From contig CP060231.1 in assembly GCA_023898625.1 (NCBI GenBank), forward strand, positions 801,890-865,889: DNA of 64,000 nt, in the 5' to 3' direction. Positions 2,488 through 48,163 of this stretch are shown in pieces. A program made the translations under genes and the position numbers. This DNA is from Candidatus Nomurabacteria bacterium. Lineage in GTDB: Bacteria; Patescibacteriota; Saccharimonadia; Saccharimonadales; JAGQNJ01. The stretch's first letter is position 1. The number at the start of each line of letters is the position of its first letter. The notes under the pieces are model-generated. The model was not told where the DNA came from. It did no database searches and saw only the letters and a list, made by a program, of their open reading frames with translations.

Positions 2488-2488
2488 G

Positions 2489-2956
2489 ATGAAGTTTAAT
2501 CAGTTACAAACAGCGAAGTCAAAATCAATCACTCGTGTAGGGCGTGGTATTTCTGCTGGTAAAGGAAAGACAGCAGGGCGTGGCACCAAAGGCCAAAATT
2601 CTCGAACAGGTGGTGGTGTGCGACCAGGATTTGAGGGTGGTCAAAATCCATTAGCTCAAAGATTACCAAAGCTTCCAGGGTTTAAGTCCAAAACACCAAA
2701 GGCTGAGAACGTATACACTGGACAACTAGATAGTTTAGGGGCTAACATAGATAATTTTAAACTTGCACAAGCAGGTATTGTCACTAATCCATATACTAGA
2801 GTTAAGTTGATATTAAAAGGTGATGTTACAAAGAAAACGACTATTAAGGTGCAATCTGCAAGCAAATCAGCAGTTAAGGCCGTTGAAAAAGCTGGCGGTA
2901 AGGTAGAGATTATTGAGCGCCAAAAAAGACAAAAGCAAGAAAAAACAACAAAATAA
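2489..2956 (+). CDS. rplO: 50S ribosomal protein L15
   Basis: 155 aa with the Gly/Lys/Arg-rich N-terminus GRGISAGKGKTAGRGTKGQ. It starts 2 nt after the rpsE stop, leaving no room for rpmD (L30). Confidence 0.95.
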   Translation: MKFNQLQTAKSKSITRVGRGISAGKGKTAGRGTKGQNSRTGGGVRPGFEGGQNPLAQRLPKLPGFKSKTPKAENVYTGQLDSLGANIDNFKLAQAGIVTNPYTRVKLILKGDVTKKTTIKVQSASKSAVKAVEKAGGKVEIIERQKRQKQEKTTK

Positions 2957-3013
2957 GTTTTTATTCTGACAATTTATAGATACAATAAGATTAATGAGAG
3001 GGAATAGTCGTTA

Positions 3014-4519: not shown

Positions 4520-4572
4520 GTAACGTCTTATTAGGCTAAAGAAGTGGGATTAGCTAGATATTTATTTCCCCC

Positions 4573-11900: not shown

Positions 11901-13769
11901 CCAACCACTCCTCCATCTCCAACAACTCCCACAGAATCAGACACCCCTTCATCTTCATCCAATAATCAGTACTACTCCAACCCTCAATCTACAGCACTAC
12001 CAGCTCCCCTATCTAAAGTAGTCAAAGGTTCCTTCATGCAATCTCTAGTGAACTATACTGCTAACAATATACCTAAACCCGTAGCTAAAGCCATTCCATA
12101 CAGCCTACTCATACTTCTACTAGCTCTCTCAGCCCTCTATGGCTATTCTAGCTATCTAGAAAACAAAAGAAGACAAGCTCTCCAAGCTCTCATCACTCGC
12201 TTTAAATCTCTACTATCGGCTAGAGCTACCTTCCTACGTATTACCTCCCACTACATCAATACACCGATCACTAAGATCCAAGGAACCATAGAACTACTAG
12301 CTATGGGTACTACTTCAACCACAACTGCTAATACCACAACAGCAAGTACCAACACCACAAACAATAACTCAAGTACTAACAATAACTCTACAGGCTCTAA
12401 TACCAACCCTCCTACTAATACCAGCTCTACTCCTCCAAGTAACACTACTAGCTCTACCAGTAATCCAGGCACTACCTACACCCCTAACTCTAGCTCCCAG
12501 ACTAGTTCAGCTTCCGTAAACAGCTCTAGCAATCAGGCTAGTACCACCAGCTCCATCAGTTCTACTCCTAGCTCCCCTAATAGCATTAGTATACCTATTA
12601 ATACTAACTCTAGCTCTCAGTCTGGTTCAGCTTCCGTGTTCACCTCAACCCTAGCCACTACAGCTACCACTCTAACTATCCCAGAAGCCTCTATCGTAGC
12701 CTCTAAGTCAGCCATCAAGAGTCTCACTAACCATGCCAATGAACTACTAGATGAAGGACAATCCCTCACCGGAAGACAACAAGCTAACATCAGAAACCTA
12801 GAACAAAGAAAAGGACTTAGCTTCCTAACCCATCCTTTCTTCTGGCTCCCAGTAGTAGTTATCTCTACCTTAGTAGTACTACTCAACATCATCTTCATTC
12901 AAGCTGAACGCTATACCCCTACAGCTATTACTATTGCTTCTCAACTTATCCTAGGCTTCGTTGGTGTTATAGCTTTAGGTGTCAGCTACTACTTCTACCG
13001 TTCCTTCCAGTCCCAAAGACAAGCTCTACTAACCGAACAAGAAATAGAACAAGAGTTCAATGCTCGCCAAGCTAACTTCATAGCTGATGCCTACAACAAG
13101 CTCAACGATGACATCATAATCCTAGAAGGTGTCAGCCAAGACCTAGCTAAGTATCCTAAAGTCCGTAACTTCAACCAAGGCCTCAATGAACTAAAAGACA
13201 TAGTCTCCCAACTAGAAAAACTCAGCAACCTATCTAAGCATGTCCCAGGACTGCAATACCACACCAACCTAAGCAGTACTATATCTACTACCCTAACTAA
13301 CCTCAGATCCCTAGCTGACCAACAGAACATCACTATAACTACCAACAACATCAAACCCAACCAAAACGTCAACATAGAAGCTAATGCTCTAACCCATCTA
13401 CTGTCAGCTCCACTCAAGAATGCTATCTCAGCTAGTACTGCTGGCTCCAATATAGAACTATCCCAATCCAACCACAAAGCCAACAAATCTAACCAGATAA
13501 ATAAACCCAACACAGTAACTACCAACCTTAGCAATACCAACCTACCTATCCAAATAACTATTACCGATCATGGCAAAGGCATACCCCCAGAACAACTAAA
13601 CAATATCTTTACCCCATTCAACTCAGCCCATAGCCTAGAACACTTCACTGATACCGGACTAGGACTAGACCTCTACCTATGCAAAGTAATTGCCGAACAA
13701 TACAACGCCAACCTAACCATCACCAGCCAACCAGGAGAAGGCACAACAGTGATAGTGGGGATGGGGTGA
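5994..13769 (+). CDS. Giant (2,591 aa) membrane-anchored adhesin-like protein fused to a C-terminal histidine-kinase module
   Basis: Single uninterrupted ORF. Domain order: N-terminal TM anchor; Ig-like segment; two modules of PKD-like (YNYNVDWGDS...HTYSTPGTYTVKI) plus about 25-aa DUF285/BspA-type LRRs (FNQPLNNWNTSNVTNMSGMF); FN3; about a dozen GLUG-type GGLVG repeats; PT-rich stalk; TM; H-box (ATFLRITSHYINTPITKIQGTIELL); S/T-rich tract; two TM helices; HATPase_c boxes (LKNAISAS, DHGKGIP, IFTPF, GLGLDLYLCKVIAEQYNANLTITSQPGEGTTV). Confidence 0.85.
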   Translation: MKLNPKALLSKLPLPFWASFYLFLIILTIPVLAYIGTLSKADPGTLTVTINQKTGTTDPNPSYTSVFTVVFNEAINSNTFTNTDITLGGTAPGQTIQSITEAGAFNKTTYEVRIQATGAGTIIPTIAQELITAQSNNTNTNQASSSSDNTVTYDGTYAPNEFVTTWKTDNPGISASNQITIPTHWTGGYNYNVDWGDSTTSSNQTGDSTHTYSTPGTYTVKISGTFPRIHFGKGVSDYIKILTVEQWGSNPWTSMNESFYFPYNLTIPAIDAPNLSNVTDMSSMFSKATSLNQSLNHWDVGNITNMSRMFNEASTFNQSLNNWNTSNVTNISGMFAYATSFNGLINDWTTSNVTDMSGVFVGATIFNQPLNNWDTSSVTDMSWMFYQATSFNQSLSNWNTSNVTKLNIMFTEAAAFNQPLNNWNVVNVLDLSNLFARATSFNQPLNNWNTSNVTNMSGLFAGAASFNQPLNNWNTSNVTNMSGLFVGATSFNQPLSGWDLNSVTNMTMMFSSTSIQVAPGVTLSPSGLSTTNYDSTLAGWSSQSLQSGVTFDAGTSKYCNSETQRQSIITNHSWTINDGGKDCSSIGSTEFITTWKTDNSGVSGSNQITVPTFSGETYNYNVDWGDSTTSSNQTGDSTHTYSTPGTYTVKITGTFPRIYFDGTTDHDKILTVEQWGTNPWTSMNGAFSGASNITIPATDAPDLSGVTDMNGMLQGVSTFNSNINNWDVSNVTNMGSMFAGTTNFNQPLNSWDVSNVTAMDGMFFGATSFNQNIDSWDVSSVINMSGMFSGASDFNQPLNSWDVSSVENMTGMFGGALDFNQPLNNWNTENVTEMVGMFASATSFNQSLDSWDVGNVTLMNYMFGNANGYLEQAFAGVPYEDWPAMFQALYNLPMSGLSTANYDDTLISWAQQTVQQGVVFGGGTSKYCLSETYRQALISNDSWSITDAGKDCQGVSLDKPQNLSGTPFTRIVELDWDSVTGSHHYDVQYKKTSESSWVDYVDSTVYGSFISIYDLDPQTSYDFRVKTVRSDSITSDWSDILTVTTLPQSTYHITNCQQLQAISIDPVTYELGDASGNYIIDNNIDCSESSNWDWQGLLPVEMQQTTGFVSIYNITNGGDFTGNFEGQGHTISGLYQDSDRYGGLFYTIKYSSIKDINLANIDVNFTSNHITSSCQNESSFSVIDESNVCSAIGGLVGGMRENSKISNISVGGQIHVDSTPISNANGYETTNIIGGLVGVGSDTSFDGVVDINNSSSNVNITVSSSNKTVAQPGLQDFVAKIFSLDVGYENNDPNYTSIIAGGVIGSALGFEISNVQANGGVSTNGYYNVRSVGNLAGVFASAFDSSISNSTAGGTIECQGGGSMSSIGAGVGIVMNMIPLNLSNSENIFSNASIHDISTSTNINCSVDYSSFSVGGVIGATFSMAPAIEAIEPEVVYNNLSSTGNISIGASKYRSYTNFAYSIFTYFGGPHKILDGVGGIIGSVAGGPSGADFKISKTSVKSSHSSSNITVKSGIPIGGLVGLTEGRVLIEESDSSGNIVSDTTEWAQQPSECYFAPDANSDCAGYYFSYGIAGGLVGMANGNCSYPITEFQDDNTNCENRIDIQNAKATGNVEALNGRGISGGLVGTANNTLISRSYSSGEVQSRIAGGLVGVIISDSVNNQGIENSHSTSQVTSTYDPSNPTYFDEGFLFGGSIPIAGGLAGISMAQISSSYASGDVTIQQSASRIGNGRLYGVGSAGGLVGYGIAGLDTSNLITLPPEDRPNPVNFAPFFTRPSTDPLGVFGVVNSFATGKVSVPSNEVYVPIIDKNVPVISAGLIGMYPEYRDPDYISQNNILPLDFNSYYDVEKTGQDECVKDISVIIGALAYPDMYSDCHPINTDGSQPNYFKNNSTNPPLNQWNFSTIWKTNCTNYPDFVGSTNCNPSNPPENPGNGNPPTTPTTPTTPTTPTTPTNPPKTPSTTKPPTPTTPTTPPSPTTPTESDTPSSSSNNQYYSNPQSTALPAPLSKVVKGSFMQSLVNYTANNIPKPVAKAIPYSLLILLLALSALYGYSSYLENKRRQALQALITRFKSLLSARATFLRITSHYINTPITKIQGTIELLAMGTTSTTTANTTTASTNTTNNNSSTNNNSTGSNTNPPTNTSSTPPSNTTSSTSNPGTTYTPNSSSQTSSASVNSSSNQASTTSSISSTPSSPNSISIPINTNSSSQSGSASVFTSTLATTATTLTIPEASIVASKSAIKSLTNHANELLDEGQSLTGRQQANIRNLEQRKGLSFLTHPFFWLPVVVISTLVVLLNIIFIQAERYTPTAITIASQLILGFVGVIALGVSYYFYRSFQSQRQALLTEQEIEQEFNARQANFIADAYNKLNDDIIILEGVSQDLAKYPKVRNFNQGLNELKDIVSQLEKLSNLSKHVPGLQYHTNLSSTISTTLTNLRSLADQQNITITTNNIKPNQNVNIEANALTHLLSAPLKNAISASTAGSNIELSQSNHKANKSNQINKPNTVTTNLSNTNLPIQITITDHGKGIPPEQLNNIFTPFNSAHSLEHFTDTGLGLDLYLCKVIAEQYNANLTITSQPGEGTTVIVGMG
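6471..8849 (+). repeat. Internal tandem duplication of a PKD-like plus LRR plus cap module inside the giant gene (module 1 at 6471-7742, module 2 at 7758-8849)
   Basis: Both modules start (N/T)EF(V/I)TTWKTDN and end GGKDC/AGKDC. An approximately 85-nt stretch is nearly identical (6566-6650 vs 7847-7931). Confidence 0.85.
7312..7461 (+). repeat. Two near-perfect tandem 75-bp (25-aa) LRR units
   Basis: Copies at 7312-7386 and 7387-7461 read cattcaatcaacctttgaataattggaataccagtaatgttacgaatatgtctggactgtttg. They differ only in the last few bases. Confidence 0.9.
8871..9135 (+). other. Fibronectin type III-like domain of the giant protein
   Basis: PQNLSGTPFTRIVELDWDSVTGSHHYDVQYKKTSESSWVDY...YDFRVKTVRSDSITSDWSDILTVTTLP matches the FN3 pattern. 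Confidence 0.7.
9400..11240 (+). other. GLUG-motif repeat region of the giant protein
   Basis: Recurrent (I/V)(G/A)GL(V/A)G followed by N/S-rich turns: IGGLVGGM, IIGGLVGVG, IGGLVGLTEG, IAGGLVGMANG, ISGGLVGTANN, IAGGLVGVI, IAGGLAGIS, AGGLVGYG. Confidence 0.6.
11761..11965 (+). repeat. Pro/Thr-rich low-complexity stalk (PTTPTTPTTPTTPTNPPKTPSTTKPPTPTTPTTPPSPTTPT)
   Basis: Direct reading of the translation. It generates the antisense GVVGVVG shadow ORF at 11729-11962. Confidence 0.9.
12180..12300 (+). other. HisKA-like dimerisation/phosphoacceptor helix with the candidate phospho-His (codon 12249-12251)
   Basis: ENKRRQALQALITRFKSLLSARATFLRITSHYINTPITKIQGTIELL, compared with the canonical FLANVSHELRTPLTSI H-box. 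It lies immediately after the TM helix at 12091-12160. Confidence 0.55.
13383..13766 (+). other. HATPase_c (catalytic ATP-binding) domain of the giant protein
   Basis: N-box LKNAISAS, G1 ITDHGKGIP, F IFTPF, and G2 TGLGLDLYLCKVIAEQYNANLTITSQPGEGTTV. Confidence 0.75.
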
Positions 13770-36193: not shown

Positions 36194-36565
36194 GTGGCAA
36201 GAACTAGAAAGCTACCAAGTAAAAAAAGCAAGAAATCGCCAAGATTTAAAAAACCCACTGCGGTTGGAAATTTTTTTTCCAAAATATGGAGTGTCATCAA
36301 GAAGCTTTTTAGGCCTTTTCGATTTTTGCTGAAGCCATTTAAACTCCGACCAGTAAGATTTATTGGTAGAGTCTTGCGCAAAATTCTATTAATAGATTAT
36401 TTTATAGCAAGTTGGCGTGAACTTAAGTTAGTTTCATGGCCTGGCAGAAAAGAAACATTTCAACTCACGATCGCTGTTTTTGTTTTCGCTATTGGATTTG
36501 GCGTTTTTATCGCAATTGTCGATTTTGGATTAAGTAAACTATTTCAAGAGGTATTATTAAAATGA
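36194..36565 (+). CDS. secE: Preprotein translocase subunit SecE with a long basic N-terminal extension
   Basis: C-terminal ELKLVSWPGRKETFQLTIAVFVFAIGFGVFIAIVDFGLSKLF; sits upstream of nusG. Confidence 0.8.
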   Translation: MARTRKLPSKKSKKSPRFKKPTAVGNFFSKIWSVIKKLFRPFRFLLKPFKLRPVRFIGRVLRKILLIDYFIASWRELKLVSWPGRKETFQLTIAVFVFAIGFGVFIAIVDFGLSKLFQEVLLK

Positions 36566-37104
36566 GTAAGAGATATGACACAACAAAACATTGGTACGCA
36601 ATTCATACTTATAGTGGTTATGAAGAAAAGGTTGCAGAGAGCATCAGGCAACGAGCTGACAGCCTGGATATGAAAGACAAAATTTTTCAGGTATTAGTGC
36701 CTAAAGAAAAAATGATTGAAGTCAAAAATGGCAAACGTAAGGTAGTAGAAAAGCGAATATTTCAAGGGTATGTTATAGTTCAGATGAAACTGACCGAAGA
36801 TGCTTGGTATATTGTTAGGAATACTCCGGGGGTAACCGGGTTTGTAGGAACTGGCACAAATCCAAGTCCAGTTAGTGAAGCAGAAGTTGAAAAAATCCTA
36901 AAGCGAATGGGTCGTGCTGAACCAAAACACAAAATCGACTATCGTGAGGGAGAGGTTGTAAATATTATTGACGGACCATTTAAGGGATTTGATGGCACGA
37001 TAAACGAAATTGATGCCCAAAAAGGCAAATTAAAAGTACTTGTTAATATGTTTGGTCGTGAAACACCAGTTGAACTAGATAGTTTACAAGTAAAAAGGGT
37101 ATAG
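36562..37104 (+). CDS. nusG: Transcription termination/antitermination factor NusG
   Basis: 180 aa with KHWYAIHTYSGYEEKV, NTPGVTGFVG and a KOW motif GEVVNIIDGPFKGFDGTI. Confidence 0.95.
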   Translation: MSKRYDTTKHWYAIHTYSGYEEKVAESIRQRADSLDMKDKIFQVLVPKEKMIEVKNGKRKVVEKRIFQGYVIVQMKLTEDAWYIVRNTPGVTGFVGTGTNPSPVSEAEVEKILKRMGRAEPKHKIDYREGEVVNIIDGPFKGFDGTINEIDAQKGKLKVLVNMFGRETPVELDSLQVKRV

Positions 37105-37106
37105 AA

Positions 37107-37412
37107 ATGGAAAAACTACCGAATCCAGAAGAACATCTGATTTTTGAGTGGATGGACAACATGATAGACGACAATCTGGATATTGAGCGAAGAAATATTG
37201 GTGAATCTTACCATAAGTTTGGCCTTACCTACGTCTTAGCTGTGTTAGAAGGTGGAACCGCCAAATGGGATCACAGAGTGAGGCTTTACACACCTGCTGA
37301 GTCAATTTTTGCAGATCACGCCACTGGAAATCTGTCATTCAGTGAAGTTTCTGAGATTCTAAATACAATGGTTGATGGAACCTTTAGTGGTTACACTAGA
37401 CAACAGAGGTGA
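37107..37412 (+). CDS. Hypothetical acidic protein (ORFan) inserted between nusG and rplK
   Basis: 101-aa ORF starting 3 nt after the nusG stop. No recognisable motif. Confidence 0.5.
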   Translation: MEKLPNPEEHLIFEWMDNMIDDNLDIERRNIGESYHKFGLTYVLAVLEGGTAKWDHRVRLYTPAESIFADHATGNLSFSEVSEILNTMVDGTFSGYTRQQR

Positions 37413-37486
37413 TCTTTGTTATAGTAAGCTACGTTACACATATTATTTAGCGCAACAAGCTTCGGTTGCAATCAATAAGGAATTAT

Positions 37487-37915
37487 ATGGCACAGAAAGT
37501 AGTAAAAGCAAACTTGAAACTCAAAATACCAGCAGGTAAAGCAAGTGCGGGCCCGCCAGTTGGCAGCACGCTTGGTCAATATGGAGTTAATATGATGGAT
37601 TTCGTTACTCCATTCAATGAACAAACACGAGACATGAAAGGCACTGTTACAGCTCACATCACAGTTTATGACGATCGTTCTATGGATTTTAGAGTAGTTA
37701 GCCAGCCCACAGATGATTTAATCCGAAATGCACTTGGCATTCAAAAAGGATCGGGTAAGCCGAATAGCGAGAAAGTTTCCAAAAAACTGACTGATTCTCA
37801 GCTAACGCAAATTGCCGAAGAAAAAGCTAAAGATATGAATACAGATGACATTGAGGCAGTTAAGAAAATGGTTGCTGGTACGGCCAGAAGTATGGGTGTG
37901 GAGATTGAAGGTTAA
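37487..37915 (+). CDS. rplK: 50S ribosomal protein L11
   Basis: Start at the ATG at 37487 after an AAGGA RBS: MAQKVVKANLKLKIPAGKASAGPPVGSTLGQYGVNMMDF. Confidence 0.95.
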   Translation: MAQKVVKANLKLKIPAGKASAGPPVGSTLGQYGVNMMDFVTPFNEQTRDMKGTVTAHITVYDDRSMDFRVVSQPTDDLIRNALGIQKGSGKPNSEKVSKKLTDSQLTQIAEEKAKDMNTDDIEAVKKMVAGTARSMGVEIEG

Positions 37916-38349
37916 TGATGACTCTCTACGCAGGTCAGACAAAGAACTCTGTTACTCCACTCGAAACAGAAAAGGGGCTGACACTTTTTGATGAGGCTAC
38001 ACGAAAACAAGCCAATAACGCATTAGAGACAGGTGTTGTTTCTTTCGAACTAAAGTCAAAACTTGAATCTATGTATATTGATGGAAGTCATCAAGCAGGA
38101 TATTTTCTTGGCACAATGATTATACAGGGAGTCATTGAGTACCCTATTGCAATAACAAAAAACAAAGTCTCACGTGGAAATGCTGGCCCTGGCATGGAAG
38201 GTCCAGAGTATGAGAGAATGGTTGAAAATATGAGGATGCGTATATTCACAGATATGAATGATAACGAAACCGACTCACCAGTATCTACACTAGATTATTT
38301 ACGAGCTAGAGGTATAGATGACGTATATAGTGCAATTGAAGAGGAATAA
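37915..38349 (+). CDS. Hypothetical protein (ORFan) inserted between rplK and rplA
   Basis: 144-aa ORF whose ATG overlaps the rplK stop (TAATG). No recognisable motif. Confidence 0.5.
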   Translation: MMTLYAGQTKNSVTPLETEKGLTLFDEATRKQANNALETGVVSFELKSKLESMYIDGSHQAGYFLGTMIIQGVIEYPIAITKNKVSRGNAGPGMEGPEYERMVENMRMRIFTDMNDNETDSPVSTLDYLRARGIDDVYSAIEEE

Positions 38350-38401
38350 TTAATACAATTGTGGGAGAGTTAAACTCGCTTGTACCACGAAAGGAGTCAC
38401 A

Positions 38402-39394
38402 ATGACAAAGAAATCGGAACTATTAGAACAAGCTACTGAGCTTGGTTTAGATGCTACAGCAAAGAATACAATTGCCGAGATTGAACAAGCTTTAAGCAAT
38501 GCTACCAACATAAATAATAACGACACACCAGATAAAGAAGAAAAATTAGCAAAATCTGGTAAACATAGCGCCAAAGGGATTAAGGAGTCTGAAGAAAAAC
38601 AGGCAAAAATCGAAAAACAGCATCATCGTGATGAAGTAATGGATAGTGAAGAGCAAGCTTCTAACCCTAAGCCCAAAAAACCCGTAAAGCCAACACGCTC
38701 TAAATTAGAACGCCGTGGGAAAAAATACAAGAGTGTAGCCAAGTTAGTCAATAAAGACAATGAATACTCACTAGATGAAGCGCTTGAATTATCAATTAAA
38801 ACTAATCCTAGTAAGTTTAACGCAAGTGTTGAGCTACACGTAAAATTAGGCGTTGACCCACGACAAGCTGACCAAAACATACGCGGAACAGTCAGCTTGC
38901 CTTCTGGTACTGGTAAAAATGTTAAAGTGGCAGTATTTGCGGATGTTGAGGATGTAAAGAAAGCCAAAGAGGCTGGAGCTGATATTGCTGGAAGTGATGA
39001 ATTCTTGCAAATGCTCGACAAAGAAGACATCCAGTTTGATGTACTAATTTCAACTCCTCAAATGATGGCAAAGCTAGGTAAATATGCCCGTCTACTAGGA
39101 CCAAAAGGATTGATGCCAAACCCCAAGAGTGGGACAGTTACCAAAGACATTGCTGTTGCTGTCAAGGAGGCAAAGGCTGGAAAAGTAGAGTATCGTGTTG
39201 ATTCCACCGGAATTATTCATTTGAGTATCGGTAAGACTGATTTTAGTATTGATGATCTACAAAAAAACGCAAATGCTGTTTTTGGTGCCATAAAATCTGC
39301 CAAACCATCTTCATTAAAAGGAAGTTATGTGCAAAGTATATATATTGCGACTACAATGGGGCCATCAATTAAAGTCAGTCCTAGCGTAATATAG
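38402..39394 (+). CDS. rplA: 50S ribosomal protein L1 with about 93-aa N-terminal extension
   Basis: The L1 core begins at RRGKKYKSVAKLVNKDNEYSLDEALEL (about nt 38680), where no internal Met is available. The N-terminus KKSELLEQATELGLDATAKNTIAEIEQAL resembles a Rho-N/SAP (helix-extension-helix) motif and is followed by a Lys/Glu-rich linker. Confidence 0.9.
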   Translation: MTKKSELLEQATELGLDATAKNTIAEIEQALSNATNINNNDTPDKEEKLAKSGKHSAKGIKESEEKQAKIEKQHHRDEVMDSEEQASNPKPKKPVKPTRSKLERRGKKYKSVAKLVNKDNEYSLDEALELSIKTNPSKFNASVELHVKLGVDPRQADQNIRGTVSLPSGTGKNVKVAVFADVEDVKKAKEAGADIAGSDEFLQMLDKEDIQFDVLISTPQMMAKLGKYARLLGPKGLMPNPKSGTVTKDIAVAVKEAKAGKVEYRVDSTGIIHLSIGKTDFSIDDLQKNANAVFGAIKSAKPSSLKGSYVQSIYIATTMGPSIKVSPSVI

Positions 39395-39462
39395 ACTCTA
39401 CTTTCTCGACGCTATAAAAAGAACAACAGACTAAGAATCGAGCTGTTGCTATAATCTCCCTT

Positions 39463-40167
39463 ATGGGAGTTTATAGCAACAAGCAGATCAACGATGCAAT
39501 TAAGTCTAATCACATTGTCTACCATCCATACAATGCCAAGCATATTGCTGGTAGTAGCGTTGATGTAACTTTAGGTAATTGGTATTACAGAACAGAGAAG
39601 CCAAGCCAAGGTGGGTTTTATAATCCTTTTGATAAGAAATCGGTTGATAGCTATTTTAGCGGTCCATTTAAAGCTGAAATTCATCAAGAATGGGCCGATA
39701 AACACGGAAAGAAACTGTTTACTAATATACCTGCTGATCATCCTATAATAGTATTGCGTCCACAAGAACGTATTTTGGCGCACACACATGAGTTTGTCGG
39801 TATCAGAGCACCTGGGACTAGTACAATGCAGGCCCGAAGTACATGGGGTAGAAATGGTGTTGCTGTTTGTCTTGACGCTGGCTGGGGTGATCCGGGGTAC
39901 ATTAATCGTTGGACAATGGAAGTTTATAATATGAACCAACATGAAAGTGTAATTCTGCCGGTAGGTGAACGGATTGCACAAATTGTGTTTTATGAAACAG
40001 GCCCTGTTGATAACGAATACAAAAAAATTAGTGGTAAATATCAATCAAGTACCAGTGATGATCTTGATTCAATAATTGCAATGTGGACACCAGAACAAAT
40101 GTTGCCACGAGGATATAAAGATTCACGAATCATTCCGGAGGCCATTAAAGGTATAAAATATGAATAA
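39463..40167 (+). CDS. dcd: dCTP deaminase-family protein (dUTPase superfamily)
   Basis: 234 aa with GTSTMQARSTWGRNGVAVCLDAGWGDPGYINRWTMEVYN and ERIAQIVFYE. Confidence 0.75.
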   Translation: MGVYSNKQINDAIKSNHIVYHPYNAKHIAGSSVDVTLGNWYYRTEKPSQGGFYNPFDKKSVDSYFSGPFKAEIHQEWADKHGKKLFTNIPADHPIIVLRPQERILAHTHEFVGIRAPGTSTMQARSTWGRNGVAVCLDAGWGDPGYINRWTMEVYNMNQHESVILPVGERIAQIVFYETGPVDNEYKKISGKYQSSTSDDLDSIIAMWTPEQMLPRGYKDSRIIPEAIKGIKYE

Positions 40168-42478
40168 TGAGCCTACGCCTTATGAAAGTGGTGGGCAAAA
40201 GGGTTTATTCATAGTAATTGAAGGAACTGATGGTTCTGGAAAAAGCACGCAATATAAAAAGCTACGAAAACATCTTGCTGATAGTGGATATGAAGTTGTC
40301 GATATGCATTTTCCTAGATATAAAGAAGATTCTAGCTACTTTGTCAGACAATATCTTGCAGGAAAGTACGGGTCATCTGATGACGTCGGCCCATTCACTG
40401 GTTCACTTTTTTATGCCTTAGATCGCTATCAGGCATCAAATGAGATTCGCAATGCATTATCAGAAGGTAAGATCGTACTATGCGATAGGTTTGTCGGTTC
40501 AAACATGGCGCACCAAGGAACAAAGTTTAGCAATGCTGAAGAGCGTCGTGGATACTTTATTTGGCTTGACAATATCGAGTTTATAACACTTGGCATTCCA
40601 CGCCCTGACCTAAACTTTGTACTCAATACTCCCCTGGATATAATTGTTCGAAGGTTAAATGCAAAAAAACAATCAAGTGAAGCAATTCAAAAGGATATTC
40701 ATGAGACAAACGAGAACCATATTTCTAAGTCAATTGAAGTATATAAAGATTTGTGCAACTTGTTTCCAAAAGATTTCCAAAGAATTGATTCATCTCGAGG
40801 TAACGAAGAGCTAACAGTCGATGAAATACATAATCTAATATGGGAGAAAGTTACACCAATGCTTCAGCCAATCAAAAAAGACTTTGACGATACAGATAAA
40901 GTTTTAGAAAAGACAGACCTAGGTATAATTATTACAGATGCAGGGAAGAGATTACTGAGTGAATCAATAACAAACACAGATGGAAACGTGTATGCATTTA
41001 ATGAAAACATTAGTCCAGTGACAGTGGCTGCCGCAATGGCAAGACTTAGCAGAAGAGGTGATGATATGCGCGTAACACTTCTGGACGAGTTTATTAACAA
41101 AGCCGACAAAGACAAAGGACTGCTTAAACGCGTCATAACAGCGTATGGCGATGACTCGGTTCAACAACTAGTTGGTCAACACGTTGTTGTCGAGAACGCT
41201 TCTAACCTCTTAACTAAAAAACTAGAATGGGGAAGGCTAGCCTCTTATCTTGAACAATCTACTAGATATATATATTTTGACCAGAAAGACCAAAACGGAA
41301 ACTATCGATACCATATTCCAGAGTATTTTGATGATAAAACAAAATCACAATACATAAGTTCCTTGGACAGTATTTTTGATTTGTACTCTACGATAGTTCA
41401 TAGATTAACTGATTATGTTCGCGAAAAATCAAGCATACCACCAGAATCTAGAGACATTGCCTGGAAAGGAGCAACCAGAGCGCAGGCGTGTGACGCTGCT
41501 AGACCACTATTACCGGTAGCAACAACATCTACGGTTGGAATATTTGCATCTGGTCAAGCGCTAGAAAGTCTAATAATGCATCTACTTAGCGATGAACTAC
41601 CAGAAGCTAGAAATGTTGGTCAACAAATTCTTGAAGAATCAAGAAAAGTAATCCCTACATTCTTAGAGCGTGCAGATAAACCGGATCGTGGAGGAGCAAC
41701 TATTGCTTATATGTCCAATACTAAGCGATCAGTCAAAACACTAGTAAGCAGTCTATTGCAAGATTCATACAGCAATGATCACAGATCTGTGACTCTTAGT
41801 AATTATTGGCCAAAGAATGAGCTAGATGTTATTCCACAGATGATATATGAGCATAGCAACTTATCTCTTCACGAAATTAAACATCAAATTAATAACCTAG
41901 ATTATAATCAACGTTGCGACATCTTTAACGCATACATCGGCGAGCGATTAAATCGGCGACACAGGCCAGGGCGGGCGCTTGAAATTCCTCACTATAGCTG
42001 GGATATTGTGTGTGACTATGGGATTTTTCGTGATCTTCAAAGACATAGAATTGTAGATGATTTACAGTGGCAATCCCTAACACCACGATTTGGATACGAT
42101 ATACCTGAATTAATTGAATCTGCTGGCCTGGTCGATTTATTCGAAAAATGTTTTTCAATTAGTCTGGAACTATTTAGCTTACTTCAAGCCAATAACTATG
42201 CCACTGAAGCACAGTACGCAACATTACTAGGTCATAAGATGCGTTGGAAGGTCACCTATAATGCTCGTGAGGCTTTTCATCTGCATGAACTACGAACCAG
42301 TCCACAAGGGCATCCTGGGTATCGCAAGTTAGTGAAAGAAATGCATGATAAGCTATGTGAAGTACACCCTATGTTGGGACAGGCTATGAAGTTCATTAAT
42401 CAAGATGAGGATCCAGAGCTAACTCGATTAGCATCTGAGCGTTACACTCAATTTAAATTGCAACAAATTGACAAGTAA
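40160..42478 (+). CDS. Fusion protein: thymidylate kinase (N-terminal) plus tandem-duplicated FAD-dependent thymidylate synthase ThyX
   Basis: Tmk: GLFIVIEGTDGSGKSTQ and DRFVGSNMAHQG. ThyX half 1 carries a degenerate motif (LEWGRLASYLEQSTRY). ThyX half 2 carries the canonical motif (FRDLQRHRIVDDLQWQS). The ORF is 772 aa and continuous. Confidence 0.8.
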   Translation: MNNEPTPYESGGQKGLFIVIEGTDGSGKSTQYKKLRKHLADSGYEVVDMHFPRYKEDSSYFVRQYLAGKYGSSDDVGPFTGSLFYALDRYQASNEIRNALSEGKIVLCDRFVGSNMAHQGTKFSNAEERRGYFIWLDNIEFITLGIPRPDLNFVLNTPLDIIVRRLNAKKQSSEAIQKDIHETNENHISKSIEVYKDLCNLFPKDFQRIDSSRGNEELTVDEIHNLIWEKVTPMLQPIKKDFDDTDKVLEKTDLGIIITDAGKRLLSESITNTDGNVYAFNENISPVTVAAAMARLSRRGDDMRVTLLDEFINKADKDKGLLKRVITAYGDDSVQQLVGQHVVVENASNLLTKKLEWGRLASYLEQSTRYIYFDQKDQNGNYRYHIPEYFDDKTKSQYISSLDSIFDLYSTIVHRLTDYVREKSSIPPESRDIAWKGATRAQACDAARPLLPVATTSTVGIFASGQALESLIMHLLSDELPEARNVGQQILEESRKVIPTFLERADKPDRGGATIAYMSNTKRSVKTLVSSLLQDSYSNDHRSVTLSNYWPKNELDVIPQMIYEHSNLSLHEIKHQINNLDYNQRCDIFNAYIGERLNRRHRPGRALEIPHYSWDIVCDYGIFRDLQRHRIVDDLQWQSLTPRFGYDIPELIESAGLVDLFEKCFSISLELFSLLQANNYATEAQYATLLGHKMRWKVTYNAREAFHLHELRTSPQGHPGYRKLVKEMHDKLCEVHPMLGQAMKFINQDEDPELTRLASERYTQFKLQQIDK

Positions 42479-42482
42479 GTTT

Positions 42483-42848
42483 TTACGACTCGTCAACAGA
42501 AGTTGTATGAATCTCTAAATGCGTGTCAGAGATGTTAAAAGTTAGATCACTAAAACAATTTTTTACACCGGTCATCTCTGAAAACTTTGTAGCGGTGGAG
42601 TTTATGGTGTTAATGATATTTGCTATACGTTGGGCATTTGCCTGTGAGTCACCAGGAATCAGCTCGATGATTATACCTGATTTTCTGGAGATTAAATCTG
42701 CTAGACCATGAGCCGTAAACAGCTCATTTATGCCTGAAGATTCGGTATCCGATACCGTCAGACTATCAACAGGAGAAATGTCTTCAATATGACAATACAT
42801 GGCGTAATGATGTTCGTATTTTTCTTGTGGTGAGCTATTATCGTGCAT
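42483..42848 (-). CDS. Hypothetical protein
   Basis: 121-aa ORF convergent with tmk-thyX. No recognisable motif. Confidence 0.45.
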   Translation of the reverse strand: MHDNSSPQEKYEHHYAMYCHIEDISPVDSLTVSDTESSGINELFTAHGLADLISRKSGIIIELIPGDSQANAQRIANIINTINSTATKFSEMTGVKNCFSDLTFNISDTHLEIHTTSVDES

Positions 42849-43496
42849 ATATTTGAATTTATGGAGGAAGATTTGGGATATTAATCGATGATTTGAGGCT
42901 TAGGTGGGGTCTATTTGTGAAGTTCAAAAAAACTTCTAGACGCAAATGAGCTTGCTTCACAAGGCCTTCTTGTGAACCCACCTGTACCGCGAGCCTATCT
43001 TCAACCTTGAACAGGCTACCTGCAAATGCCTCGCAGATTCTGTTCCTGCCTTTGCAGACGAAGCTCCCAAATCCTCTTCAGGTCTGGAGAATCCTCTGCC
43101 TTCTGCGACTGGAGCAACCGCCTGGTGCGCTTGATTGCCTCTTCAAGCAACTTTGCACTCGCCATACGGCGTGCGCTGGCCTCATCGACATCCATCAGGA
43201 TATCAACCACTTTCTTCCCCCATTGTTAATCACCCTACTCAGGTGGCTAATGACATGATTGTCACTAGACTTGCTTGGAAGCAATGCTTCCATGAACATC
43301 TTGCTACAAAACGCTCATCGAAACACTGCATTATAAAAGCCGAACTTTTGGTTGGAGTTCGGCTTGTAATTTCTGATCTTGAAGCTACTCCAACACACTA
43401 TTCATAAATAATCACAAAGCAAAACGCTTTGTTCATATTGAGTCGGTATGTGTGTTGTGTCTTCACAGTTGAATAATTTACTCTGCTATACTAGAT

Positions 43497-43660
43497 TTGT
43501 CAATACAATATATTGAGTATACAATACTAATAGATGAAAAATTTCGTAAATAGACTACAGCTACTCCTCTTAACTCACCTTAAAGGGCTGTGTTTAGCAT
43601 TTGCGAAAGCCTGATTGATAAGAGATTCAACGAACACAGCCCGAACTATCGGGCTTTTTT
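43497..43660 (+). promoter_or_regulatory. Candidate promoter plus structured leader with mutually exclusive antiterminator/terminator helices
   Basis: Promoter TTGTCA (43497-43502), 17-nt spacer, TACAAT (43520-43525). The 10-bp helix GGGCTGTGTT (43585-43594)/AACACAGCCC (43633-43642) shares AGCCC with the terminator stem AGCCCGA (43638-43644)/TCGGGCT (43649-43655), which is followed by T6. A GGAG RBS and the ATG at 43679 follow. Confidence 0.4.
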
Positions 43661-43678
43661 ATTAGCAAAGGAGAATAT

Positions 43679-44053
43679 ATGAAATACATTAATGACAGTC
43701 AGTGGGAGGCTGAATATGAACAAATGCCTAGAGTCAGGGGATATACTGAAGCCGAACGAAGTATTATCGACTCTGAACCCCAAAACTCCCAACAGCGAAT
43801 TGCGAAAATTCAAAAGGTTATGGAAATTGATCAAAATAGATACCAGGAGTTCAAAGAGATATACCCAGATCAATCGGTACACATGGATAAGTTGATTGAA
43901 GCTTGCGCATTTTTTGCACAAGCAATGGTACGTATTTATAGTCAAGATTGGGGTGTAACGACAAGCGAAAATAGCGAATCTTGCCCAGAAGATATTCCAA
44001 CTAAAGGTATACTTACGCTATTAAACGTAGAGTTTATCGATAGACCGGCTTGA
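43679..44053 (+). CDS. Hypothetical acidic protein
   Basis: 124-aa ORF with a good RBS (AAAGGAG). No recognisable motif. Confidence 0.55.
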   Translation: MKYINDSQWEAEYEQMPRVRGYTEAERSIIDSEPQNSQQRIAKIQKVMEIDQNRYQEFKEIYPDQSVHMDKLIEACAFFAQAMVRIYSQDWGVTTSENSESCPEDIPTKGILTLLNVEFIDRPA

Positions 44054-44126
44054 CAAACGTGCTTACACGGAGTACAAATAGTTTCATAATGACTAAAATG
44101 ATAATTTCAACAATTATTATCAGCTC

Positions 44127-44187
44127 GCATTTGCGGGATTAGTTGTTATATTTAGTAACAAATTAACCCCGCAAACGCGGGGTTTTT
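44127..44187 (+). terminator. Terminator hairpin with an upstream competing (antiterminator-like) strand
   Basis: Terminator CCCCGC (44167-44172)/GCGGGG (44177-44182) plus T5. The upstream CGCATTTGCGGG (44127-44138) is complementary to CCCGCAAACGCG (44168-44179) at 11 of 12 positions. Confidence 0.5.
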
Positions 44188-44205
44188 AAATTGGAGGATT
44201 TAATA

Positions 44206-44397
44206 ATGACGATATTTGAACAAGAACTAAAATATGATTTTTATACAGAAGCATCAGATAAGATGTCGGATAGCACATTACAAAATGAGCTAGAAAATTT
44301 CTTGGAAACAACAGGGAATCCTGAAGTCAAGCAACATCTTACAAACCACAAATTACGTGCTGATTTTATACTAAAAGTAACAGATTTTATGGACTAA
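44206..44397 (+). CDS. Small acidic hypothetical protein
   Basis: Start trimmed to the ATG at 44206, 8 nt after GGAGG: MTIFEQELKYDFYTEASDK... Confidence 0.5.
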   Translation: MTIFEQELKYDFYTEASDKMSDSTLQNELENFLETTGNPEVKQHLTNHKLRADFILKVTDFMD

Positions 44398-44403
44398 TTT
44401 GAT

Positions 44404-44847
44404 ATGGAGGTTTTGTTACAAGAAATGACAGTAAGTGGATACGAAATCCATAAAAGTATACAAAATGACATAAAGTTGACTGCTCAAGATCGTTTGTATT
44501 TTACAAGATTTAACGCATTAGAGTCACTCGATAAAGAATCATACATAAAAGGCCTCGCATCTCTAGCTATTTCGGTAAGCGATAACTGTGAAACACACGA
44601 AAACATTACTAGTCAGAAACGACTAGAGCGCATGTATGCATCTCTGAGCATAAATATTGAACCATATGACGAAACAAGGCTACTTAGTCTGGAGACTGTT
44701 GACTCTATTCTTTTAAACGTAATTGAGTATATTGATTCTAATTGTGATGGTTACTATGGATTAGATTTTATCGATAGAATAAGAACCGCTCGACGTAGTG
44801 GACTAGCCCCCACAAAACAAGACAGCAATCCATTTACTGACATATAG
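44404..44847 (+). CDS. Hypothetical protein
   Basis: 147-aa ORF starting 6 nt after the previous stop. No recognisable motif. Confidence 0.5.
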   Translation: MEVLLQEMTVSGYEIHKSIQNDIKLTAQDRLYFTRFNALESLDKESYIKGLASLAISVSDNCETHENITSQKRLERMYASLSINIEPYDETRLLSLETVDSILLNVIEYIDSNCDGYYGLDFIDRIRTARRSGLAPTKQDSNPFTDI

Positions 44848-44879
44848 TGTTTTTGAATCATGTAAAAGTTTACGCCAAG

Positions 44880-45075
44880 TTGACCAACATGCAAGTATTT
44901 GATAAAATAAGCTTACATTTACCAAAGAAAGTGGCGCTATCAATCATAGTTAAGAATGCTACCGAGGTACGAGAAGTCACAATAAAACTGATTCGTATAA
45001 TATAGCCTCTGGTAAACCCGGAGGCCTTTTTGGTAATAGCAAGGTCGATAAATATCAATAATAATAGGATAAATT
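44880..45075 (+). promoter_or_regulatory. rplJ promoter and probable L10(L12)4 autoregulatory leader with attenuator hairpin
   Basis: Promoter TTGACC (44880-44885), 17-nt spacer, TAAAAT (44903-44908). An 8-bp hairpin GCCTCTGG/CCGGAGGC (44995-45015) is followed by CTTTTT. The leader is about 165 nt before the rplJ ATG. Confidence 0.45.
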
Positions 45076-45600
45076 ATGGCATTAACTAAAGATCAAAAAC
45101 AGTTGGTGGTCGACGAAGTTAGCTCGTTACTTGAAGGCTCAAAAATGACAATCGCTGTCGAGTATAAAGGCATCGGAGTAAAGTCATTGCAACAACTACG
45201 CAAATCTGCCAAAAATAACGGCACAGTAATAAAGGTTATTAAAAACCGTTTAGTTGTAAAAGCACTGCAAAGTAACTCGAAGTTAAAAGATGTTGACATT
45301 AATGATTTAAAAGGTCAGCTTCTATACGCCTTCAACGGCGAAGATGAAGTTGCACCCGCTCAAACTTTAGCAACGTTTGCAAAAACTAATCCGTCATTAA
45401 GATTTGTGGGCGCAATCACTGCAGAAGGACAGTTTATGAGTCCTGACGAAGTAAAGGTTCTAGCCTCGTTACCAAGCAAGAACGAACTAGTTGCACAAGT
45501 TATAGCAACATTGACATCACCACTTAATGACGTAACAAATGCACTTTCCGGAAACTTACACGCCCTACTTGACGGTGTGGAGTCAAAAGTGAGCGCTTAA
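45076..45600 (+). CDS. rplJ: 50S ribosomal protein L10
   Basis: 174 aa [42 protein letters not shown]... Confidence 0.95.
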
Positions 45601-45619
45601 TAATACTAAGGAGATAATT

Positions 45620-46003
45620 ATGGCAAAAGATTTAAAGAAAATTGCAGAAGAACTTACCAGTTTAACTGTACTAGAAGTAAATGAACTTAAGACAATCTTA
45701 AAAGATGAATACGGTATCGAACCTGCCGCAGCGGCAGTAGCCGTAGCTGGACCTGCTACAGGTGGAGACGACGCTGGATCCGCTGAAGAAAAGAGCGAAT
45801 TCAATGTCGTACTTAAAGACGCTGGAGCTCAAAAAGTGGCCGTGATCAAGGCAGTAAAAGAAATAACTGGTCTTGGTCTTGGTGAAGCTAAGGCGATTGT
45901 TGATGGTGCACCAAAAGCTGTACTAGAAAACGCCAAAAAAGAAGACGCTGATAACGCAAAGAAAACGTTAGAAGAAGCTGGAGCTACCGTAGAGCTTTCA
46001 TAA
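45620..46003 (+). CDS. rplL: 50S ribosomal protein L7/L12
   Basis: 127 aa with an Ala-rich hinge and C-terminal [28 protein letters not shown]. Confidence 0.95.
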
Positions 46004-46162: not shown

Positions 46163-46672
46163 ATGCCAGATGTACCAGATAAACAAATCAAAAGACTCAG
46201 AATCTTAATACAAGAGGCTGAAACTTCACTTGCTGCCGCCAAAGAGTTATTAATAAGTGTGGTTGGTGAAGACAGCTCACAGGCTGTTAAACTTCAAGAA
46301 GAAGCAATAGGTAAAATTATTGAGGGTGTATTTGATGGCCAAACAATGGTCGGTAGTGATGGAAAAACCTATCCTGTACCTGCCAACTATGCGTCTAAGT
46401 CAAAATTAGTACAAGGTGACATTTTAAAGCTTACGATTGCTGATGACGGAACTTTCTTATACAAACAGATCGGTCCTGTATCGAGGGTTCAAAAAGTAGG
46501 TTTGCTTGTGCTTGAAAACGGACAATATTATGTAGAGATTGATAAAAAACAATACCGGGTATTATTAGCTAGTGTTACCTATTTCAAGGCTAAGCCTGGG
46601 GATCAAGTTAGTGTTGACCTACCTGAAGACCATAAAGATGCCGAATGGGCAGCACTCGAAGCAGCATTATAA
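46163..46672 (+). CDS. Hypothetical protein
   Basis: 169-aa ORF preceded by TTGACA (46093-46098), 17-nt spacer, TAATTT (46116-46121). Confidence 0.55.
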   Translation: MPDVPDKQIKRLRILIQEAETSLAAAKELLISVVGEDSSQAVKLQEEAIGKIIEGVFDGQTMVGSDGKTYPVPANYASKSKLVQGDILKLTIADDGTFLYKQIGPVSRVQKVGLLVLENGQYYVEIDKKQYRVLLASVTYFKAKPGDQVSVDLPEDHKDAEWAALEAAL

Positions 46673-46720
46673 GAAACTACAACAAATCAAAGCAAAATAT
46701 TAAGGTATAATTATATATCC

Positions 46721-48163
46721 ATGAGGGAGGCACTATACCGTAAACACCGACCAAAACGTCTTGATGATGTTGTTGGGCAACCACATATTACCAAGACGCT
46801 TCAGAATGCAATCGATTCTAATCGTATTAGCCATGGATACTTGTTTGCCGGCCCTAGAGGAGTGGGGAAAACGAGCGTTGCGCGAATCTTAGCTCATCAA
46901 ATCAATGATTTTACTTATGATAGCAACAATAGTAATATTCTCGACATTGTTGAGATTGATGCCGCAAGTAACCGGCGAATAGACGAAATACGCGAACTCA
47001 GAGATAAGATTCATACTGCCCCAGTGTCTGGTAAATACAAAGTTTATATTATTGATGAGGTTCATATGCTTACAAAAGAAGCATTCAATGCACTTCTAAA
47101 AACCCTTGAGGAACCACCAGAACATGTCGTATTCATATTAGCAACGACAGAAATCCATAAAGTTCCCGAAACTATTATAAGCCGTACGCAACACTTTACT
47201 TTCAGATCCGTCGAAAGCGAATCTGTCATTGCTCACCTAGATACCATTGCTAATCAAGAAGGGATAAGCATAGATAGAGCTTCCTTAGAATTAATTGCAA
47301 ATTATGGTCAAGGAAGTTTTAGGGATAGCATTGGACTGCTCGACCAGTTAAGTTCTCTTACTGAAATAAATGAAGATTCCGTAAACACTCTCCTCGGATT
47401 GCCACCCCATAGACTTGTGCGTGACATTTCAGAGGCGCTACATAACAATAAACTCACCGACCTAATTAGTTTACTCGATCAATCAAGATTCAGTGGAATC
47501 AGCGCAAATCATTTGTCAAGCGCGTTAATCGACTACATGAAGAAAGAGTTGGATAATTCGCTATCAGAGGAGACAATTGCGTTAGCCCTCAAATTATTAA
47601 ACACCAGTTCTTCAACAGATCCTGACCGATACCTGGAATTAATCTTGATTGACTATATTGTCAATAGAACAGTTGTTAATACTCCGGCACAAAAATCATA
47701 CACAGATGCTAATGAATCAAAGCCAAATAAAGATACTAGCAATACCGATATAGACACCAAATCATTAAGCAAGTCTAAAATTTCGTCAAAGCAAAATGTA
47801 GTTAGTCAAGAAACTGATGAACCGGTAAGTCTGGATGAGGAATCTTGGAATAAAATTCTTAGTGAGTTAAAAAAACAATATAATACACTTTATGGAATTG
47901 CCAGAATGGGCCGAACCGAGATCAACAACAACACATTAACTATATACGTTAGGTTTCCATTTCATCAAAAACGCCTAAAAGAAGATAAGAATGCCAAAAT
48001 TATTCATAAAGTGGCATCCCAGATTATTGGTAGTTCTGTAAAAATTAACATTGAGATAGATGACGGCGTTTCTAAGCAAATCGATCATTCCGATACCCCA
48101 GATAAATCCGATATATCAAATGTGACTAAGATTTTTGAAGGCGCTGAGTTATTGGAGTCTTAA
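46721..48163 (+). CDS. dnaX: DNA polymerase III gamma/tau subunit
   Basis: YRKHRPKRLDDVVGQ, GPRGVGKTS, IIDEVHMLT and SRTQHF. Confidence 0.92.
   Translation: MREALYRKHRPKRLDDVVGQPHITKTLQNAIDSNRISHGYLFAGPRGVGKTSVARILAHQINDFTYDSNNSNILDIVEIDAASNRRIDEIRELRDKIHTAPVSGKYKVYIIDEVHMLTKEAFNALLKTLEEPPEHVVFILATTEIHKVPETIISRTQHFTFRSVESESVIAHLDTIANQEGISIDRASLELIANYGQGSFRDSIGLLDQLSSLTEINEDSVNTLLGLPPHRLVRDISEALHNNKLTDLISLLDQSRFSGISANHLSSALIDYMKKELDNSLSEETIALALKLLNTSSSTDPDRYLELILIDYIVNRTVVNTPAQKSYTDANESKPNKDTSNTDIDTKSLSKSKISSKQNVVSQETDEPVSLDEESWNKILSELKKQYNTLYGIARMGRTEINNNTLTIYVRFPFHQKRLKEDKNAKIIHKVASQIIGSSVKINIEIDDGVSKQIDHSDTPDKSDISNVTKIFEGAELLES

Follow-up and report, generated by a model that had tools for sequence, protein, structure and literature searches.

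The 64,000-nt stretch of DNA analysed here (the window; contig CP060231.1 of assembly GCA_023898625.1, positions 801,890–865,889, deposited as Candidatus Nomurabacteria bacterium) carries a gene of the dCTP deaminase family (dcd), followed by one long open reading frame (ORF) in which a thymidylate kinase (Tmk) is joined to two tandem copies of the FAD-dependent thymidylate synthase domain ThyX. Together, the two genes are likely to form a self-contained bicistronic thymidylate operon, whose products, Dcd and the Tmk–double ThyX fusion protein, would make dTMP and dTDP. Relatives are represented by 80 loci (L001–L080), and counts are given over 77, 78 or 80 of them depending on usable sequence. 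All features are on the forward strand unless stated, and ThyX residues follow the numbering of the Thermotoga maritima enzyme, the sequence of which was checked and is identical to PDB entries 1kq4 and 1o26.

The dcd gene (nt 39,463–40,167) specifies a protein of 234 aa and the tmk::thyX-thyX gene (nt 40,160–42,478) one of 772 aa. An earlier reading of this DNA, made from the sequence only, had reported both ORFs and their overlap, and the coordinates agree: the stop of dcd and the start of the fusion gene share 8 nt, ATGAATAA (nt 40,160–40,167), indicating that translation of the two genes is probably coupled. Among the relatives, the commonest overlaps at this junction are 4 nt (23 loci) and 8 nt (14–17 loci). 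The three peptides quoted in the sequence-only reading are exact translations, namely the kinase P-loop EGTDGSGKST (aa 21–30, nt 40,220–40,249) and the signatures of the first and second ThyX halves, WGRLASYLEQSTRY (nt 41,228–41,269) and LQRHRIVDDLQWQS (nt 42,035–42,076), and the domain order that it proposed was recovered by Pfam (PF02223, then PF02511 twice). The kinase domain occupies aa 1–234 (nt 40,160–40,861; PF02223, NF005923, PDB 1g3u) and is followed by a variable linker (about aa 235–255, nt 40,862–40,924), which aligns poorly between relatives and has a predicted local distance difference test (pLDDT) score below 50 at aa 239–245. The N-terminal ThyX half (N-half) covers approximately aa 256–508 (nt 40,925–41,683) and the C-terminal half (C-half) aa 509–772 (nt 41,684–42,475).

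The kinase was detected by PF02223 (Thymidylate_kin) both in the whole fusion (aa 20–218, E = 1.9e-22) and when scanned alone (E = 1.7e-23; 80–84 bits against a cut-off of 27). It is also matched by NF005923, the PRK07933-like, actinobacterial type of Tmk (E = 1.5e-34), at a score (119–124 bits) below the equivalog cut-off of 193. The best PDB sequence match of aa 1–234 was the Mycobacterium tuberculosis thymidylate kinase (TMPK; 1g3u, E = 2e-16). Foldseek comparison of an AlphaFold2 (AF2) model found the same structure (E = 9e-10; target-normalised template modelling (TM) score 0.79) and the Thermus thermophilus TMPK (0.86), and the fold of this part resembles the TMPKs of M. tuberculosis and Plasmodium. 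The P-loop, FPRY, ALDR (aa 86–89) and CDRF (aa 108–111) motifs align with those of the M. tuberculosis enzyme, from which the window kinase differs in having His118 in place of Y103 and in being covalently joined to ThyX. All of the expected kinase elements (P-loop GxxGxGK[ST], DR[YHF] and the arginine of (A)LDR) are present, and G22, D24, G27, K28, D88, R89 and R110 do not vary among 58 homologues.

Thy1 (PF02511) matched the fusion ORF in two stretches (112 bits against a cut-off of 24.8), and each half was recognised when scanned separately (aa 239–508, E = 6.3e-17, 62.4 bits; aa 509–772, E = 9.8e-15, 55.3 bits). Since both halves match Thy1 independently, the protein is not a single ThyX domain interrupted by an unrelated insertion. 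Foldseek searches with the full-length model returned kinases alone among the matches listed, and the tandem ThyX part was therefore modelled separately (AF2; pLDDT 83.9, predicted TM score 0.85). It adopts the ThyX fold, and its PDB matches were solely single-domain chains of the ThyX family, with query-normalised TM-scores of 0.27 or less; no solved tandem ThyX was found among these fold matches. The case for two ThyX domains is built on Pfam and PDB profiles and not on self-similarity, as hhalign comparison of the N-half with the C-half gave a non-significant probability of 9%. The lack of significant similarity between the halves suggests that the duplication is ancient.

To map active-site residues, a family alignment of 49 diverse tandem ThyX proteins was built with the window protein first (32–54% identity), and its profile was searched against the PDB, where it matched M. 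tuberculosis ThyX via the N-half (E = 1e-13) and T. maritima ThyX via the C-half (E of about 4e-5). The map that follows is the one on which these alignments and hhalign concur. In the N-half, the canonical residues R80, S83 (Ser or Ala in relatives), E86, S88, R90, Y91 and R147 are retained as R359, S362, E365, S367, R369, Y370 and R448, while H53, R74, R78, H79, N163, R165 and R174 are lost, being replaced by D331, K353, W357, G358, S464, Q466 and L476; E58 has no mapped counterpart. The C-half keeps E58, R74, R78, H79, R80, N163, R165 and L173/R174 (E608, R624, R628, H629, R630, N701, R703 and L711-R712), has lost S83 (D633) and R147 (Q685), does not conserve E86 or S88, is uncertain at R90 and Y91, and has no mapped counterpart of H53. 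Across the 49 proteins, R359, S367, R369 and R448 of the N-half and E608, R628, R630, R703 and R712 of the C-half are invariant. The invariance of these positions, like that of the P-loop and DR motifs of the kinase, points to purifying selection.

The full RHRxxSxxxxSxRY motif is thus in neither half alone and becomes complete only when the halves are combined: the N-half reads WGR-LAS-YLEQ-S-T-RY, without R78/H79, and the C-half reads RHR-IVD..., without S83 and S88. As judged from these residues, the two halves are complementary, with the dUMP loop (S..E.S.RY) and R147 contributed by the N-half and the RHR, NAR and R174 elements, which bind flavin and uracil, by the C-half, where we take the roles of R147, R165 and R174 to be those seen in T. 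maritima structures. The sequence-only reading had described a degenerate first and a canonical second half; the C-half does carry RHR, but the Ser and Arg of S88-x-R90 lie in the supposedly degenerate half. Because the halves have retained different parts of the canonical residue set, we infer two complete active sites and two FAD per dimer of chains. In such an arrangement, the two halves would form an intramolecular pseudo-dimer, and a pair of chains would reconstitute the tetramer of canonical ThyX (N1, C1, N2, C2), in which sites with two C-half flavin parts and an N-half loop would be complete and the two reciprocal sites would lack everything. The canonical homotetrameric enzymes (T. 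maritima TM0449, 1o26; M. tuberculosis, 2af6 and 3gwc), which bind FAD and have active sites where three subunits meet, belong to the same PF02511 family and share the fold of the window protein, whose halves jointly conserve the RHR, S88/R90 loop, R147, N163/R165 and R174 positions. They differ in that the window chain has two ThyX domains of about 220–250 aa plus a kinase, the complete set of residues is found in neither half, Asp stands at the position of H53 in the N-half, and a dimer with two complete sites would be expected in place of a tetramer with four. Since all three parts score below the equivalog cut-offs given below and the canonical motif is found in neither single domain, the protein is best classified as a divergent tandem ThyX variant fused to Tmk, and not as a canonical ThyX.

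The same residue map bears on whether the N-half could be a catalytically dead scaffold that stands in for a partner subunit in structure only, leaving all of the chemistry, including dUMP binding, to the C-half. The absence of RHR, H53, R165 and R174 from the N-half would fit this, and hhalign can pair R643/F644 of the C-half with R90/Y91, so that the C-half might carry a remodelled loop of its own. HMMER, however, treats the S88-G-R90-Y91 segment as missing from the C-half, and the invariant N-half residues R359, S367, R369, Y370 and R448 occupy precisely the canonical dUMP-contacting positions in a family whose members are only 32–54% identical. A dead N-half is therefore considered unlikely, and a shared active site is preferred.

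Tandem ThyX proteins are common. The sequence-only reading had called the double-length ThyX unusual, but a HMMER search with the ThyX-ThyX part returned 3,578 clusters (50% identity) at E < 1e-3 and 686 at E < 1e-30, and a profile of 16 tandem ThyX proteins matched at least 7,914 clusters (90% identity), which carry the annotation FAD-dependent thymidylate synthase. The named sources span many phyla and include Binatia, Actinomycetota, Acidimicrobiia, Methylomirabilota and Vicinamibacterales. Many of the matches are 520–560 aa long, span all 534 residues of the query and lack a kinase. This double-length family (about 530 aa) shares the tandem architecture, is 32–55% identical to the window protein over 534 residues, and shows the same complementary pattern (N-half YGDDSV...E..RL.SYLEQSTRY; C-half NRRHKPGRAFE...FRDLQRHR...NAREA.H..ELRT), but lacks the N-terminal thymidylate kinase of the window protein. 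The biochemically studied ThyX of Chlamydia trachomatis (about 529 aa) may belong here as well. A tandem ThyX matching aa 272–744 of the query in one piece is also encoded by Tunturiibacter phage Tunturi_5 (PP885688.1, nt 46,495–47,979), a 309-kb jumbo phage of an acidobacterium, where it is annotated only as thymidylate synthase. A phage origin of the fusion was considered and rejected, as no phage record with the fusion was found and this one jumbo phage has the tandem ThyX alone.

The kinase fusion has a much narrower distribution, having been seen only in Patescibacteria and mainly in Saccharimonadia. A scan of one representative genome for each GTDB species found loci encoding it in at least 582 of them, nearly all Saccharibacteria, Saccharimonadales or Saccharimonadia by title. 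The window protein is 100% identical to an NCBI protein, 'FAD-dependent thymidylate synthase', encoded on an 876-kb contig of a metagenome-assembled genome, and the Tmk+Thy1 architecture is shared by over 120 clusters (760–795 aa, 63–98% identity; NCBI, JGI, ENA and Logan). More remote fusions (33–49% identity) are from Patescibacteria/Saccharimonadales wherever a source is named, and a Tmk domain is present in 32 of 37 long representatives (50% clustering). At NCBI, this identical protein carries the label 'Candidatus Nomurabacteria bacterium'; all of the close relatives and the synteny are those of Saccharibacteria/Saccharimonadia, and the label may be wrong. The arrangement is not a peculiarity of one organism but a hallmark of the whole class, and many homologues already carry the automatic JGI annotation 'thymidylate kinase/thymidylate synthase ThyX'. 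Literature searches on Tmk-ThyX fusions, on ThyX in Saccharibacteria and on duplicated or tandem ThyX found nothing relevant. Tmk-ThyX-ThyX is a class-wide trait of Saccharimonadia that has been labelled automatically and is apparently uncharacterised.

These data also dispose of the notion that tmk and thyX are separate genes that were joined by mistake, through a frameshift or a chimera, during assembly or gene calling. The DNA does come from a metagenome-assembled genome, but no stop codon separates the two parts, and an intact ORF of about 770 aa recurs in the clusters and species genomes listed above, which come from independent projects, with Tmk retained in most long representatives. 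On the conservation of the uninterrupted ORF, an artefact was rejected and is given practically no chance of being correct.

Two kinds of kinase occur at the fusion point. In 20 of the 78 related loci (L058–L064, L068–L080), the place of the actinobacterial-type kinase is taken by one of the canonical bacterial TIGR00041 type, examples of which in L072 (nt 4,995–5,699; NCBIfam) and L080 score over the cut-off (E = 9e-34 and 1.5e-31). These kinases are 26% identical to that of the window, while the attached ThyX-ThyX parts are 65–73% identical. The kinase module may have been exchanged in place, or the fusion may have formed on more than one occasion; a neighbour-joining tree of the ThyX parts is star-like, with 15 of the 20 TIGR00041-type loci clustering and five scattered, and does not resolve the number of kinase exchanges. 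As two unrelated Tmk types are found on similar ThyX-ThyX parts, the linkage itself appears to have been selected.

The upstream gene was confirmed as a member of the dCTP deaminase family by Pfam (DCD, PF22769; E = 2.3e-33, 115.9 bits against a cut-off of 27), and it falls narrowly below the threshold of TIGR02274 (89.4 bits against 92.8). Its ARSTWGR and WTMEVYN (Glu) segments align with the catalytic Ser/Arg/Glu segments of 4xjc and 1ogh, the elements (RSSxxR and TLE) by which deaminases differ from plain dUTPases; the roles of these residues are presumed to be those of S111, R115 and E138 in Escherichia coli Dcd. Ranked by similarity, the solved structures are 4xjc, the Methanocaldococcus jannaschii 'dCTP deaminase, dUMP-forming' (1ogh), M. 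tuberculosis 2qxx and, weakest, the E. coli enzyme. We take 4xjc (Bacillus halodurans) and 2qxx to be dUMP-forming and E. coli Dcd to be monofunctional, while the PDB table describes 4xjc and 2qxx only as 'Deoxycytidine triphosphate deaminase'. Because the closest structures include the M. jannaschii enzyme and the E. coli enzyme is the weakest match, the window Dcd is probably of the dUMP-forming, bifunctional (DCD:DUT) type, a ranking that suggests this but does not prove it. It shares the conserved Ser/Arg/Glu with the M. jannaschii enzyme and differs from such enzymes in length (234 aa against 177–204 aa), having an insertion of about 50 aa (near aa 45–95) and a longer C-terminus.

Of the 77 loci for which upstream sequence is available, 69 have a Dcd homologue (53–78% identical) immediately before the fusion gene and on the same strand. 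At least four of the other eight have, in its place, a zinc-dependent dCMP deaminase (PF00383 in L003, L039, L044 and L053; L057 by sequence similarity only), which is non-homologous to Dcd and has a different fold, yet likewise yields dUMP. That dCMP deaminase can displace Dcd is good evidence for a role of the upstream gene in supplying the fused enzyme with dUMP, and it supports the pathway logic of the sequence-only reading, in which deoxyuridine supply is followed by conversion of dUMP to dTMP and of dTMP to dTDP. The same comparison bears on the alternative that Dcd is monofunctional, releasing dUTP, with dUMP coming from a dUTPase encoded elsewhere and the operon not directly linked to ThyX. 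The family signature does not separate mono- from bifunctional enzymes, and a MazG-like pyrophosphohydrolase gene stands next after the dCMP deaminase in L003 and L044, so that such helpers do exist here. On the other hand, the dUMP-forming M. jannaschii enzyme and 4xjc rank above the monofunctional E. coli enzyme, the substitute gene makes dUMP directly, and the part of the 64-kb window that was scanned showed no dut. A monofunctional Dcd is a serious possibility, if a somewhat improbable one, and direct release of dUMP is favoured.

The interval between rplA and the fusion gene is a hot spot for thymidylate-related genes in species without the usual Dcd, with islands (L053 nt 2,425–4,944; L057 nt 2,431–4,953; L067 nt 2,064–4,865; L024 nt 3,975–4,568; L003 nt 3,410–4,943) that include dCMP deaminase, MazG-like pyrophosphohydrolase, a ThyA-family synthase and dihydrofolate reductase (DHFR). 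A Dcd of canonical type, encoded on the opposite strand, is also among these genes, as is an extra stand-alone Tmk in L003. Some species hold ThyA/DHFR in addition to the ThyX fusion.

The thymidylate operon is inserted at a constant site in Saccharimonadia, with the L11-L1 ribosomal protein operon on one side and the L10-L7/L12 operon on the other. The order nusG-L11-L1-dcd-fusion-L10-L7/L12 was seen in essentially all of the 80 loci with a long enough contig: L1 is upstream of dcd and the fusion gene in 69 of 80 (the rest being mostly truncated), and, downstream, L10 was found in 67 and L7/L12 in 64 of the 80. In the window, the cluster spans nt 36,194–46,003 and comprises secE (nt 36,194), nusG (nt 36,562), rplK (nt 37,466), rplA (L1, 330 aa; nt 38,402–39,394; Pfam Ribosomal_L1, E = 9e-60), dcd and the fusion gene, then about 2.4 kb of non-conserved DNA, an L10 leader RNA (nt 44,904–45,040; Rfam RF00557, 48 bits against a gathering threshold of 44), rplJ (nt 45,076–45,600) and rplL (nt 45,620).

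This position also weighs on a further alternative, in which the tandem ThyX is some other flavin/folate pyrimidine methylase (a PolB-like UMP/dUMP enzyme) or a base-modification enzyme, with the kinase acting on a modified nucleotide. PolB (4p5b) is among the fold matches, all three enzyme parts score under their NCBIfam equivalog cut-offs, and a ThyA homologue with DHFR is found nearby in L053, L057 and L067. The best structural relatives are nevertheless bona fide ThyX, the kinase belongs to the Tmk family by both Pfam and NCBIfam and comes in two independent types, and the upstream slot is held by a dUMP-supplying deaminase of one kind or the other. Moreover, the site within the ribosomal cluster is fixed and housekeeping-like in essentially all Saccharimonadia loci, most of which have no second thymidylate synthase within 5 kb. 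Such a divergent function is judged very improbable.

For a thymidylate operon, the following scheme can be proposed. Dcd would deaminate dCTP, most likely with direct release of dUMP as in DCD:DUT enzymes. The double ThyX would then convert dUMP to dTMP with FAD, NAD(P)H and methylene-tetrahydrofolate, as is known for its family, and as this step should release tetrahydrofolate, no DHFR would be needed. The N-terminal kinase of the same chain would phosphorylate dTMP to dTDP. The gene overlap would couple translation, the fusion would set synthase and kinase at 1:1, and it may, more speculatively, favour hand-over of dTMP to the kinase. A stronger version, a dedicated channelling machine with a pseudo-tetrameric core, two complete sites and tethered kinases, in which dTMP would pass to dTDP without equilibrating with the cytoplasm, is regarded as doubtful. 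Consecutive thymidylate enzymes on one chain are known from the bifunctional DHFR-thymidylate synthase (DHFR-TS) of protozoa and plants, a classical case of proposed substrate channelling. This is analogy and not homology, as DHFR-TS combines ThyA with DHFR around a dihydrofolate intermediate, whereas the window protein would combine synthase and kinase around dTMP, and its ThyX would not need DHFR.

Several observations weigh against this scheme. All three parts score below the NCBIfam equivalog cut-offs (dCTP_deam 89.4 against 92.8; DTMP_kinase, TIGR00041, 76–80 against 83.25; thyX, TIGR02170, 52.9 against 87.9), which marks them as divergent. In the full-length model, pLDDT is below 50 in both ThyX signature loops, and single-sequence phmmer searches of the PDB with either ThyX half did not recover any ThyX. 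The residue map is supported by weak profile alignments (hhalign probabilities of 33–46%, HMMER E-values of 1e-13 to 4e-5), and the two programs conflict over the equivalence of R643 and R90. Narrow profiles (HMM and hhalign) made from Saccharimonadia sequences alone gave marginal alignments, and the profile of 49 diverse tandem proteins was needed. No biochemical data on this protein, or on any Tmk-ThyX fusion, were found in the literature.

Upstream of dcd, an extended -10-like element, TGcTATAAT (nt 39,447–39,455), was identified by direct reading 7 nt before the ATG, from which it is separated by the pyrimidine-rich spacer CTCCCTT; no Shine–Dalgarno sequence was found in this interval. A consensus promoter scan made no call at the site because there is no -35 element. 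The element is suggested as a candidate promoter, and since it ends 7 nt from the ATG without a Shine–Dalgarno sequence, the dcd-tmk::thyX transcript is possibly leaderless or near-leaderless. Most relatives carry TTGACA...cgTACAAT, followed by a leader of about 20 nt with GGAGG, ahead of dcd, which argues for a dedicated promoter of the dcd-fusion module.

Apart from the L10 leader, no DNA conserved in relatives was found at nt 42,479–45,075. Small ORFs of 101–147 aa are interleaved with the cluster genes (nt 37,107–37,412; 37,915–38,349; 42,483–42,848, reverse strand; 43,679–44,053; 44,404–44,847); they match no Pfam family and, save for a single weak hit for each of two ORFs, lack homologues in the 80 loci. 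The gaps between nusG, rplK and rplA and between the fusion gene and rplJ are variable islands with species-specific content. A stretch of 2 kb with slightly higher G+C (0.404) has overlapping ORFs on both strands at nt 43,007–43,407, including a strong, terminator-like hairpin (nt 43,337–43,365), and this segment showed no Rfam match and no conservation in relatives. The Pfam domain of L1 begins only at aa 133, after a Lys/Glu-rich extension (nt 38,402–38,800), the start of which, ELLEQATELGLDATAKNTIAEIEQAL, resembles a helix-extension-helix or SAP-type motif; long L1 proteins also occur in relatives (L003, 332 aa; L039, 335 aa; L053, 351 aa). Elsewhere in the window, a giant ORF of 2,591 aa with an N-terminal hydrophobic segment (nt 5,994–13,769) lies between two ribosomal protein operons.

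All of the components are known enzymes and the architecture is visible in automatic annotation, so that the present results are a refinement rather than a surprise. They add the split active-site residues, the two kinase types at one fusion point, the displacement of Dcd and the fixed position in the ribosomal cluster. ThyX, a target for antibacterial drugs, works by an unusual mechanism for which the enzyme must be a tetramer, and the widespread tandem form would be a natural asymmetric ThyX, with site residues split over non-identical halves, that is useful for dissecting subunit contributions. The kinase fusion provides a testable case of possible dTMP channelling and a clean marker trait for Saccharimonadia. 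Members of this class are host-dependent, include residents of the human oral microbiome, and have a very limited nucleotide metabolism. If the doubtful channelling reading is right, the recruitment or exchange of two Tmk families at one fusion point, together with the fixed position of the operon, would suggest strong selection for the physical coupling of thymidylate synthesis and phosphorylation in these nucleotide-scavenging episymbionts.

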